A stretch of 64,000 nt of DNA from an uncultured Candidatus Saccharibacteria bacterium. Its GTDB lineage: Bacteria; Patescibacteriota; Minisyncoccia; Phycocordibacterales; JACOZG01. Every line of letters starts with the position of its first letter. The first letter of the stretch is position 1. The notes beneath the pieces are model-generated. The model did not search any database and had not been told where the DNA came from. It saw only the letters and a list, made by a program, of their open reading frames with translations. The translations under genes and the position numbers were made by a program. Below, in pieces: positions 43,996 through 45,118 of the stretch. The stretch spans positions 269 through 64,268 of the forward strand of contig CAZQDR010000003.1 in assembly GCA_964591715.1 (NCBI GenBank). Reading direction: 5' to 3'.

Positions 43996-44030
43996 TTAAA
44001 AAGGCCCGCCACTCAAATAGTAGCGGGCCC
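43996..44030 (-). terminator. terminator of csrA
   Basis: ggcccgc...gcgggcc + T-run. Confidence 0.6.
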
Positions 44031-44049
44031 ACCTCCCCATTGGATCAAG

Positions 44050-44304
44050 TCACGCCTTCTTTGTGTTGGCGGCGGCTTTGTCTTTCGGGGCGCCGGCGAC
44101 ATTGGCAATGTCCTCCGGCTTGACGCTCGCGGCGGCGCGATTCTCGCGCTTGATGGCCTCGTACACCTCTTTGCGATGCACGGGGACTTCGCTTGGAGCA
44201 CTGATCCCGAGGCGAACTTTGTCGCCTCGAACATCAACAACCGTGATCTCGATGTCATCTCCGATCATGATTGTCTGATCTCGTTGGCGTGATAACACCA
44301 GCAT
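44050..44304 (-). CDS. csrA: carbon storage regulator CsrA homologue
   Basis: 84 aa; MLVLSRQRDQTIMIGDDIEITVVDVRGDKVRLGISAPSEVPVHRKEVY matches CsrA core; AGGGAG SD. Confidence 0.85.
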   Translation of the reverse strand: MLVLSRQRDQTIMIGDDIEITVVDVRGDKVRLGISAPSEVPVHRKEVYEAIKRENRAAASVKPEDIANVAGAPKDKAAANTKKA

Positions 44305-44382
44305 GACGACAAGACTCCCTTCTTGGTTAGGGGTGCTTCAAGCACCCACCCCAGCGCGACTATAACGAACAACGCTACCGCC

Positions 44383-44446
44383 TTTGTAGCACTTTCAAAT
44401 TATTTTGTCAATAAAAAAGCCGGCAGATTGCGCATATCCGCCGGCT
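44383..44446 (-). promoter_or_regulatory. terminator hairpin (gccggc...gccggc + T6) followed by TTGACA-17-TACAAA promoter and 5' UTR hairpin for csrA
   Basis: seen directly; UTR hairpin gggtgcttgaagcaccc at 44331-44347. Confidence 0.4.
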
Positions 44447-44473
44447 TCACACTTCACCGCACGATTTCCCTAT

Positions 44474-45118
44474 TTACTCCTGGGAATAAGGCTCGAAGGT
44501 CAGTCGAACTCCCGGTCCCCGAACGGCCCGCTGGACCGAGACTCTCATGACGGAATCGAAGCCGTTCTTGCCCCGGCGTTGACCGAGGAAGAAGGCCCGA
44601 CCGATGTCGATGACGACATAATCATCGGACTTCGAGGCCGCGTTGCCGAAGAATGAGCGCGGCGGACCTTCGAACAAGGCATCGCCAAATTCAGTCGTCT
44701 CCGCGGGAGCGAATTTGATCTCGACCCGCGGCTTCGTGTGGGGCAAGATGTCACCCAACCAAATCTGGCCCGCCAGCCCTTCAACCAGGGGCGGTACAGC
44801 CACGCGAGCGCCCCGCCCAACATCGAAAATGGTTGGGGCTGTCTGGTCGGTCTTCGCTGCCAACCTAGCCACTTTCCGTGCTTTCGCCACTGCCGTTGTC
44901 ATAGTAATCAATCCCTGTCCTTGGAAATTCGTCGATCCTACCAAGTGGAAACGATCTTCGTTCCGCACCTGATCCCTATTAAGAACCCCGAGCAAACAAT
45001 TAACTAGTCCTTCTATTCGCTCTGGGCTCTCATACACTCGGCTCATAGCCTCAAGCCGAGATATTTCGGGCTGTCTTGCCGCATCCGTGACAAGACGTAA
45101 TACTCCTTTTTTAGCCAA
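44474..45118 (-). CDS. hypothetical protein (GC-rich, no family call)
   Basis: 214 aa ORF; GC ~60%. Confidence 0.5.
   Translation of the reverse strand: MAKKGVLRLVTDAARQPEISRLEAMSRVYESPERIEGLVNCLLGVLNRDQVRNEDRFHLVGSTNFQGQGLITMTTAVAKARKVARLAAKTDQTAPTIFDVGRGARVAVPPLVEGLAGQIWLGDILPHTKPRVEIKFAPAETTEFGDALFEGPPRSFFGNAASKSDDYVVIDIGRAFFLGQRRGKNGFDSVMRVSVQRAVRGPGVRLTFEPYSQE

Follow-up and report, generated by a model that had tools for sequence, protein, structure and literature searches.

A FliW-class csrA gene of planctomycete type beside an orphan gene in a Candidate Phyla Radiation bacterium: evidence for transfer and candidate CsrA target sites

Background

Proteins of the CsrA family bind GGA in hairpin loops, occluding the Shine-Dalgarno (SD) sequence. 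CsrA circuits are known in two forms, one in which CsrA is antagonised by small RNA (sRNA) sponges and one in which it is antagonised by FliW and tied to flagellin. The second form is the FliW-CsrA-flagellin module of Bacillus subtilis, Geobacillus and Campylobacter, of which Phycisphaerae have their own version. The csrA leader of Escherichia coli is subject to translational autoregulation and contains several CsrA sites. In this work a csrA gene and the upstream open reading frame (ORF) of 214 codons, ORF214, were analysed; together they form an island at positions 43996-45118 of a 64-kb stretch of contig CAZQDR010000003.1 (the window), assembled from an uncultured bacterium of the Candidate Phyla Radiation (CPR). 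The reading that we favour, with moderate confidence, is that of an orphaned, autoregulated CsrA acquired from Phycisphaerae, which would also repress the orphan gene ORF214.

Genes for CsrA are carried by plasmids, phages and integrative and conjugative elements, among them the Rsm paralogues of Pseudomonas and CsrT of Legionella (PMC7366521). The use of FliW in Planctomycetes was predicted earlier (PMC4682653), and high expression of csrA in ultra-small groundwater prokaryotes has been mentioned in passing (PMC9938205). No analysis of the origin or circuitry of CPR csrA was found in the literature.

Results and discussion

CsrA of the FliW-partnered subclass without its partners

The island consists of two genes on the minus strand:

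44050-44304, minus strand: csrA, 84 amino acids (aa), with Pfam, NCBIfam and PDB matches
44474-45118, minus strand: ORF214, intact, with a TTG start, from the list of ORFs

An earlier note on this DNA had described a csrA homologue and, upstream of it, the gene of a 214-aa protein, and both identifications hold. The csrA product is well above the cut-offs of Pfam PF02599 (E = 3.3e-26; 91.4 bits against 27) and of the NCBIfam equivalogs NF002469 (93.4 against 73) and TIGR00202 (85.7 against 70.1). The closest structure in PDB is chain D of 5DMB, the CsrA of the Geobacillus CsrA-FliW complex, and identity amounts to 46 % with B. subtilis CsrA and likewise 46 % with E. coli CsrA. We take L2, L4, R6, V40, V42, R44 and I47 to be the RNA-binding residues of strands beta1 and beta5 in E. 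coli CsrA. The window CsrA carries L2, L4, R6, V40, V42 and R44, a conservative V at position 47, and Q at position 7 as in the whole donor clade described below. It also has a C-terminal extension and keeps I51 and N55 (...YEAI(51)KREN(55)RAAA...), and V/I51 and N55 of CsrA have been found experimentally to be needed for FliW binding (PMC7829508). Judged by its C-terminal extension and contact residues, the window CsrA is a member of the FliW-partnered subclass, the same class as in the described FliW-CsrA-flagellin modules.

The locus differs from those modules in its surroundings. An unrelated orphan occupies the place upstream of csrA, the host belongs to the CPR, and fliW, flagellin and other flagellar genes are absent from the 64 kb. 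FliW, flagellin, FlgK and FlgL were not detected in the window by tblastn, and a hidden Markov model (HMM) of FliW made from 78 donor proteins gave negative scores on the ORF and on six-frame translations, in agreement with the earlier statement that no FliW-like partner was recognisable. Flagellin, FlgK and FlgL were not found in the syntenic relatives either.

Transfer of csrA from a planctomycete

The host was placed in the CPR, as a bacterium of Paceibacteria type, because the relatives of the arginyl-tRNA synthetase (ArgS) encoded in the window are Patescibacteria. Only the window ArgS itself exceeded 69 % identity, and the named relatives belonged to Vogelbacteria, Paceibacterota, Zambryskibacteria, Parcubacteria and other Patescibacteria. 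CsrA, in contrast to these CPR flanks, has thousands of close relatives, the best of them 84-96 % identical and, where named, from Phycisphaerae or Planctomycetota. In a scan with one genome per species the 80 best csrA loci were taken; almost all were metagenome-assembled genomes of Phycisphaerae, Tepidisphaerales, Sedimentisphaerales or Planctomycetales. In 71 of the 80 csrA is immediately flanked by fliW on its upstream and flagellin on its downstream side, and their GC content is 55-70 %. The closest metagenomic relatives (L088, L172-L176, L180) are flgN-flgK-flgL-fliW-csrA-flagellin loci, and the CsrAs that fliW and flagellin enclose in Phycisphaerae show 89-96 % identity to the window protein. 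The CsrA of a further locus (L179), which has a leader of donor type, is 96 % identical to that of the window.

At the nucleotide level similarity to the donor loci is about 80 %; it starts at the csrA start codon (44304) and fades before the stop codon (around 44080). The csrA coding sequence alone is recognisably foreign, and its GC content at third codon positions (GC3), 0.67, resembles that of the donors. Taken together, horizontal acquisition of csrA from a Phycisphaerae-type planctomycete is strongly supported by these comparisons. Horizontal acquisition had been proposed for the whole block; for csrA this is borne out by the contrast between its nearest homologues and the CPR flanks. 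The direction, from Planctomycetota to CPR, is argued from the flagellar context conserved across planctomycete orders and from the sporadic occurrence of the gene in varied contexts in CPR.

The GC content of 43996-45118 is 55.4 % against 48.9 % in the window, an excess of about 6.5 points, which places the island at z = 2.1 among all 1123-bp windows, second after 31861-32983 (56.3 %). The 58-60 % and the difference of about 10 points given earlier were therefore right in direction and overstated in size; 58-61 % is reached only locally, at 44000-44200 and 44500-44900, the latter corresponding to ORF214 codons 80-214 (61 %). Tri- and tetranucleotide deviations (z = 2.2 and 1.7) put the island roughly in the top 5 %, below the stretches 1-2800 and 8300-9600, and the island is not the most deviant stretch. 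GC3 is more telling than overall GC, with 0.67 in csrA and 0.70 in the 3' part of ORF214 against 0.54 +/- 0.06 in 57 host genes. Composition is by itself a modest signal and no proof of transfer; the case rests on phylogeny and gene context.

Other deviant stretches were seen during this survey. Positions 1-2800 have 37-40 % GC and k-mers more deviant than those of the csrA island, with two ORFs that match PsbP_2 weakly. About 800 bp at 31648-32442 are missing from three relatives (L082, L083, L084) and coincide with the 1.1-kb stretch of highest GC (56.3 %). Two minus-strand ORFs there (31702-32397 and 32500-33201), neither with a match in Pfam, resemble tandem paralogues.

Conserved synteny and age of the insertion

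The best matches from another phylum and the shifted composition are also what would be seen if a planctomycete fragment had been mis-joined into a CPR contig during assembly or binning. The comparison covered a 45-kb metagenome contig from JGI, the window's own NCBI contig and Logan contigs from several runs, and the order lexA-dinB-DHH-ORF-csrA-tm69-cdaA-secE-nusG-rplK is the same in these independent assemblies. Since they agree on the order, the island is not chimeric. Moreover, identity to the donors is only about 80 % in nucleotides and ends at the coding sequence, the leader and terminators are found in the CPR lineage alone, where they are conserved, and the synonymous divergence (dS) of csrA between CPR relatives matches that of neighbouring genes. 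An artefact is accordingly regarded as highly improbable.

Gene order around the island is thus conserved in relatives, to which the window is about 84.5 % identical over 20.9 kb. Between the window and the relative L083 csrA has a dS of 0.45 and a ratio of nonsynonymous to synonymous divergence (dN/dS) of 0.11, while dS of neighbouring genes is 0.36-1.4. From the shared synteny and a dS within the range of the neighbours it follows that the common ancestor already had csrA and that selection has maintained the gene from then on, which dates its acquisition before the split of the two CPR species. The relatives represent effectively two lineages, L001 being 99.9 % identical to L083. A metagenome scan with CdaA for an empty insertion site gave only relatives of at most 47 % identity without synteny.

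Other CPR copies and possible mobile carriage

The presence of csrA in a reduced genome had been considered unexpected. It is not unprecedented: csrA has been noted in groundwater prokaryotes (PMC9938205), and three further contigs labelled as CPR were found here. These three loci, labelled Candidatus Saccharibacteria (L009, L017 and L046; GC 49-54 %), carry the same type of csrA in unrelated contexts: one copy has GAF and PAS genes as neighbours, a second lies between lysS and mraZ, and that of L046 comes directly after a serine recombinase gene. Each CPR-labelled CsrA resembles some planctomycete protein more than it does its CPR counterparts, and the closest Phycisphaerae sequence differs from copy to copy; the L009 protein, for instance, is 87 % identical to L003 and at most 78 % identical to the other CPR copies. 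The CPR proteins are also scattered in a neighbour-joining tree of 88 CsrAs, which is built on 84 aa of signal and carries no bootstrap support. These relationships suggest that csrA may have been acquired repeatedly by CPR lineages. As a separate observation, the L017 CsrA (6001-6225) has Glu at position 55, where Asn is invariant in FliW-regulated CsrAs, which would fit loss of FliW control.

The vehicle of transfer may have been mobile. The earlier remark that csrA homologues occur on phages and mobile elements agrees with the published plasmid and phage copies (PMC7366521) and with our matches to phage families (PHROG 9500, 1.6e-23). Two IMG/VR contigs (L181 and L182, 67-69 % GC) encode CsrAs of the same clade, 72-77 % identical, and lack flagellar genes including fliW and flagellin. 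The IMG/VR contigs and the phage-family matches make a mobile vector plausible. In L046 (2612-4834) csrA directly follows a helix-turn-helix gene and a gene of a 511-aa serine recombinase, which suggests carriage on an integrative element.

The whole island could accordingly be the cargo of a phage or integrative element that brought csrA. As a proposal on the vector it does not conflict with the interpretation given above. It is, however, countered by the surroundings of the island, where no integrase or other mobile-element genes were found in the window, no convincing att-like flanking repeats were seen and no tRNA gene is present in the 64 kb; ORF214, moreover, has no phage match. We regard the cargo explanation as possible but rather doubtful. 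The window csrA shares with mobile csrA genes the ability to move between genomes, whose hosts may lack native Csr circuitry, and differs from them in its chromosomal housekeeping neighbourhood, in the absence of element genes and in its stable inheritance in related species.

SD sequences presented in hairpin loops

Hairpins with GGA in the loop were predicted in front of both genes of the island:

44325-44310, minus strand: csrA SD hairpin CAAGA[AGGGAG]UCUUG, 5 nt before the ATG, candidate autoregulatory site (seen on folding the 90-nt leader, in both the minimum free energy (MFE) and the centroid structure)
45134-45119, minus strand: ORF214 SD hairpin GGUAC[AAGGAG]GUACU, directly before the TTG, candidate CsrA site (scan and fold)
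45170-45178, minus strand: AAAGGAGGA motif, about 45 nt 5' of the ORF214 SD hairpin, possible second CsrA site (sequence; identical in relatives)

The hairpin of csrA is conserved in two relatives (L083 and L085). The scan took in every GGA of the window and asked whether it lies in a 5-8-nt loop with a closing stem of 4 or more Watson-Crick pairs, ahead of the start codon of an ORF of at least 50 codons. An SD of the form A[A/G]GGAG in a hairpin loop was found only at csrA and ORF214 among the 72 gene starts of the window; one further site, at 25920, has a loop that is not an SD. The chance that both island genes would be among the three positive starts out of 72 is about 0.001.

The comparison with the donors is instructive in this respect. 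Their flagellin leaders contain a near-invariant CAAUC[AAGGAG]GAUUG, whose hexaloop, a few bases ahead of the start codon, holds the SD with its GGA, and the ORF214 hairpin has the same hexaloop; the AAGGAG SD in the loop is therefore a further likeness of the candidate window targets to the described module. In donor csrA leaders (GGC[CAAGGAAGGA]GCC), too, the SD lies in a hairpin loop, and the same holds for the other CPR csrA leaders, which are unrelated in sequence. The donor hairpins deserve a mention of their own. The flagellin SD hairpin (L172 6330-6366, L088 5940-5975) lies within an outer stem in which the start codon is paired, and the leader hairpins of flagellin and csrA together have the appearance of a CsrA operator pair that planctomycete orders have conserved.

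The SD-loop hairpins fit CsrA binding at the csrA and ORF214 leaders, which are thus candidate sites. A GGA-containing hairpin in the csrA 5' untranslated region, with possible autoregulation, had been suggested before; the hairpin was found, and the recurrence of SD-in-loop structures in donor and CPR csrA leaders lends the idea comparative support. As in E. coli, a GGA site overlaps the csrA SD, and this recurs in donor and CPR csrA leaders. The window leader differs in having a single small SD hairpin instead of several sites.

ORF214, a lineage-specific gene

The upstream gene has two parts of different composition:

44882-45118, minus strand: 5' part of ORF214, codons 1-79, GC 47.7 %, GC3 0.43 (composition)
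44474-44881, minus strand: 3' part of ORF214, codons 80-214 and stop, GC 61 %, GC3 0.70 (composition)

The leader and codons 1-79 are host-like in composition and codons 80-214 are GC-rich. Codons 1-79 differ from L083 by one nucleotide, which is synonymous. The frame is kept through three indel codons at the junction of codons 79/80, and the divergent 3' part has a dN/dS of 0.25 (0.25-0.26 for the ORF), no stops and an excess of synonymous change (p = 1e-6). Other frames show ratios above 1 or stops; the usual exception is the mirror antisense frame, in which three stops occur. By this pattern of substitution ORF214 is a real gene under purifying selection.

No family could be assigned to its product. 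A word-index search of 5.8 billion proteins returned only the protein itself and its 85 % orthologue, and an exhaustive HMMER search of 1.84 billion representative proteins only the protein itself. No match was obtained in Pfam (E up to 1), NCBIfam, PHROGs or PADLOC, nor in PDB sequences, phage genomes (tblastn) or IMG/VR, and neither the N- and C-terminal halves nor alternative-frame ORFs had a Pfam match. AlphaFold2 gave no confident fold, with a predicted local distance difference test score of 32 for the single sequence and 35 for a two-sequence alignment. The protein thus resolves to nothing, a housekeeping family included, and on these searches ORF214 is a true, lineage-specific orphan.

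Two specific identities were tried and rejected. ORF214 is not a FliW, as the donor-FliW HMM gave -1.9 bits, hhalign a probability of 0.1 % and Pfam no match. The GC-rich 3' part is not a decayed donor fliW or flgL either, since the six-frame FliW HMM, hhalign and tblastx against the donor loci produced only noise.

The earlier note had proposed that the 214-aa protein may be a new partner or antagonist of CsrA, in place of FliW. It adjoins csrA upstream, where the donors have fliW, it is under purifying selection, and the FliW-contact surface of CsrA, with I51 and N55, is intact (PMC7829508). The proposal is nevertheless weakened by the lack of any FliW similarity noted above, by the lack of an ORF214 adjacent to csrA in the CPR-labelled loci L009, L017 and L046, by the strong terminator between the two genes and by the missing fold; the protein has no homologue anywhere and therefore provides no co-occurrence signal. 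We consider a protein partner unlikely, and ORF214 protein as partner of CsrA appears less likely than ORF214 mRNA as its target.

The near-invariant 5' block of ORF214

The leader and first codons of ORF214 stand out by their conservation:

44881-45230, minus strand: ultra-conserved block, leader and codons 1-79, 349 of 350 nt identical to L083

With a local dS of 0.47, about 20 synonymous differences would be expected in the block (an estimate). No other 350-nt window of the 20.9 kb is as conserved: its identity is 99.4 % against a mean of 84.5 % (standard deviation 7), and next come a divergent promoter region (97.7 %) and nusG-rplK (95.4 %). One edge of the block coincides with the DHH stop codon, the other with the GC switch and the indel-rich junction at codon 79/80. 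The runner-up, at 35799-36148, lies in the divergent intergenic region of a thymidylate/dCMP-deaminase nucleotide-metabolism cluster and contains an exact run of 188 nt.

In the MFE fold of the block GGA occupies four of eight hairpin loops (45134-45119, about 45096-45073, 45022-44990 and 44926-44912). The mean for 353-nt windows is 0.25 +/- 0.53 GGA loops (850 windows, both strands), and only windows that overlap the block reach four. The fold z-score of the block is -2.2, A.GGA occurs 8 times against 0.94 expected, and the 5' 350 nt of ORF214 hold 11 GGA motifs, of which the four mentioned lie in predicted hairpin loops. One block loop, ACGGAUGC, resembles what we take to be the CsrA consensus from in vitro selection (SELEX). 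The 5' part of the ORF214 mRNA is possibly a multi-site CsrA-binding RNA.

Enrichment of GGA loops is a feature that this RNA shares with the Csr/Rsm sponges CsrB and RsmY/Z. It differs from them in being mostly coding and part of an mRNA, in a motif density below that of CsrB, and in the lack of any Rfam match or sign of a separate sRNA; known RNA families were found neither in the window (Rfam) nor, at permissive thresholds, around the island. A bolder proposal is that the ORF214 transcript is the missing antagonist of CsrA, a dual-function mRNA and sponge that would titrate CsrA with its GGA loops, so that an RNA or an orphan protein would replace FliW in a minimal two-gene Csr circuit. We think this improbable.

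A proposed mechanism and its weighing

The observations can be combined as follows. A Patescibacteria (CPR, Paceibacteria-like) lineage took csrA from a Phycisphaerae-type planctomycete; in the donors the gene belongs to the FliW-CsrA-flagellin partner-switch module. It came to lie between the DHH phosphoesterase gene and tm69-cdaA and is maintained by purifying selection. CsrA dimers would bind GGA in the short hairpin loops that contain the SD, so that the hairpin of the csrA mRNA would mediate negative autoregulation of translation and that of the ORF214 mRNA repression of the orphan gene by CsrA. The further GGA-loop hairpins in the near-invariant 5' 350 nt might make this RNA a multi-site target.

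Several points weigh against this interpretation. The hairpins are short (4-5 bp) and the z-scores of the leader folds are non-significant against shuffles. GGA near start codons is partly trivial because the SD itself contains GGA, and only the presentation in a hairpin and the restriction to two genes add information beyond the SD. Motif counts alone are weak, since the Lys/Glu-rich coding sequence of rplL is equally rich in AAGGA, and the comparison covers only two independent lineages, too few to show covariation. The orphan does not accompany csrA in the other CPR loci. Finally, the kept I51 and N55 are also consistent with a fliW elsewhere in the genome, outside the 64-kb window.

The block and the SD hairpins may alternatively have nothing to do with CsrA. 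The block would then be a tract of recent homologous recombination, and the hairpins ordinary translation-attenuating structures or the product of chance. That the block is compared with only one other lineage, that other 350-nt windows reach 95-98 % and that the hairpins are so short all speak for this. The coincidence of the block edges with feature edges, its rank as first of 850 windows for GGA in hairpin loops, and the recurrence of the SD in a loop both on donor flagellin and, in four independent CPR contexts, on csrA speak against it. We hold the explanation by recombination and chance to be tenable but the weaker one, and continue to prefer an orphaned CsrA that would control its own leader and that of ORF214.

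Neighbouring genes, promoters and terminators

Upstream of the island lie lexA, dinB and the gene of a DHH/DHHA1 phosphoesterase, and downstream the gene of a 69-aa membrane protein (tm69), cdaA, secE, nusG and rplK, all of housekeeping type. The CdaA diadenylate cyclase (42929-43768) and the DHH/DHHA1 phosphoesterase (45234-46313) flank the island and could be a pair for synthesis and breakdown of cyclic di-AMP, with csrA inserted between them. The tm69 gene (43746-43955) overlaps the start of cdaA.

The following signals were noted at the two genes:

44411-44383, minus strand: promoter-like TTGACA-17-TACAAA for csrA (by eye; conserved in relatives)
45241-45213, minus strand: promoter-like TTGACT-17-TATATC for ORF214 (by eye; conserved in relatives; overlaps the DHH stop codon)
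44030-44002, minus strand: terminator-like hairpin after csrA, 12-bp stem then T run (intrinsic-terminator scan)
44448-44416, minus strand: terminator-like hairpin after ORF214, 13-bp stem then T run (intrinsic-terminator scan)

The block had been credited with a promoter of its own. A consensus scan called none at the island, yet the two motifs seen by eye are conserved in relatives. For the terminators described earlier, two strong hairpins are indeed present, although the number of terminator-like sites in 2.2 kb (3) does not exceed that expected from shuffles (2.7). The stretch 44050-43957, on the 3' side of csrA and including its terminator hairpin, is identical in relatives, and so is the hairpin 44448-44416, which probably separates two transcription units. 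Just before this terminator a small hairpin, UUCCC[AGGAGUAAAUA]GGGAA (44466-44486, minus strand), has a loop that contains GGA together with the stop codon of ORF214.

Conclusions

For the transfer of csrA a probable donor type, an origin in the flagellar module and an acquisition before the species split can now be specified from the comparison of loci. If the hairpins should prove irrelevant, an ordinary transfer of a single gene and an orphan gene would remain. As it stands, a CsrA of FliW type is under selection in a non-flagellar reduced genome with neither of its partners in the 64-kb window, which raises the question of its targets and of its off-switch, and the two neighbouring SD-loop hairpins are directly testable as such targets. 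The transfer from Phycisphaerae to CPR, possibly repeated, is also a lead on the organisms with which uncultured CPR bacteria live: the occurrence of csrA in several unrelated CPR contexts could mark Phycisphaerae as their hosts or close neighbours.

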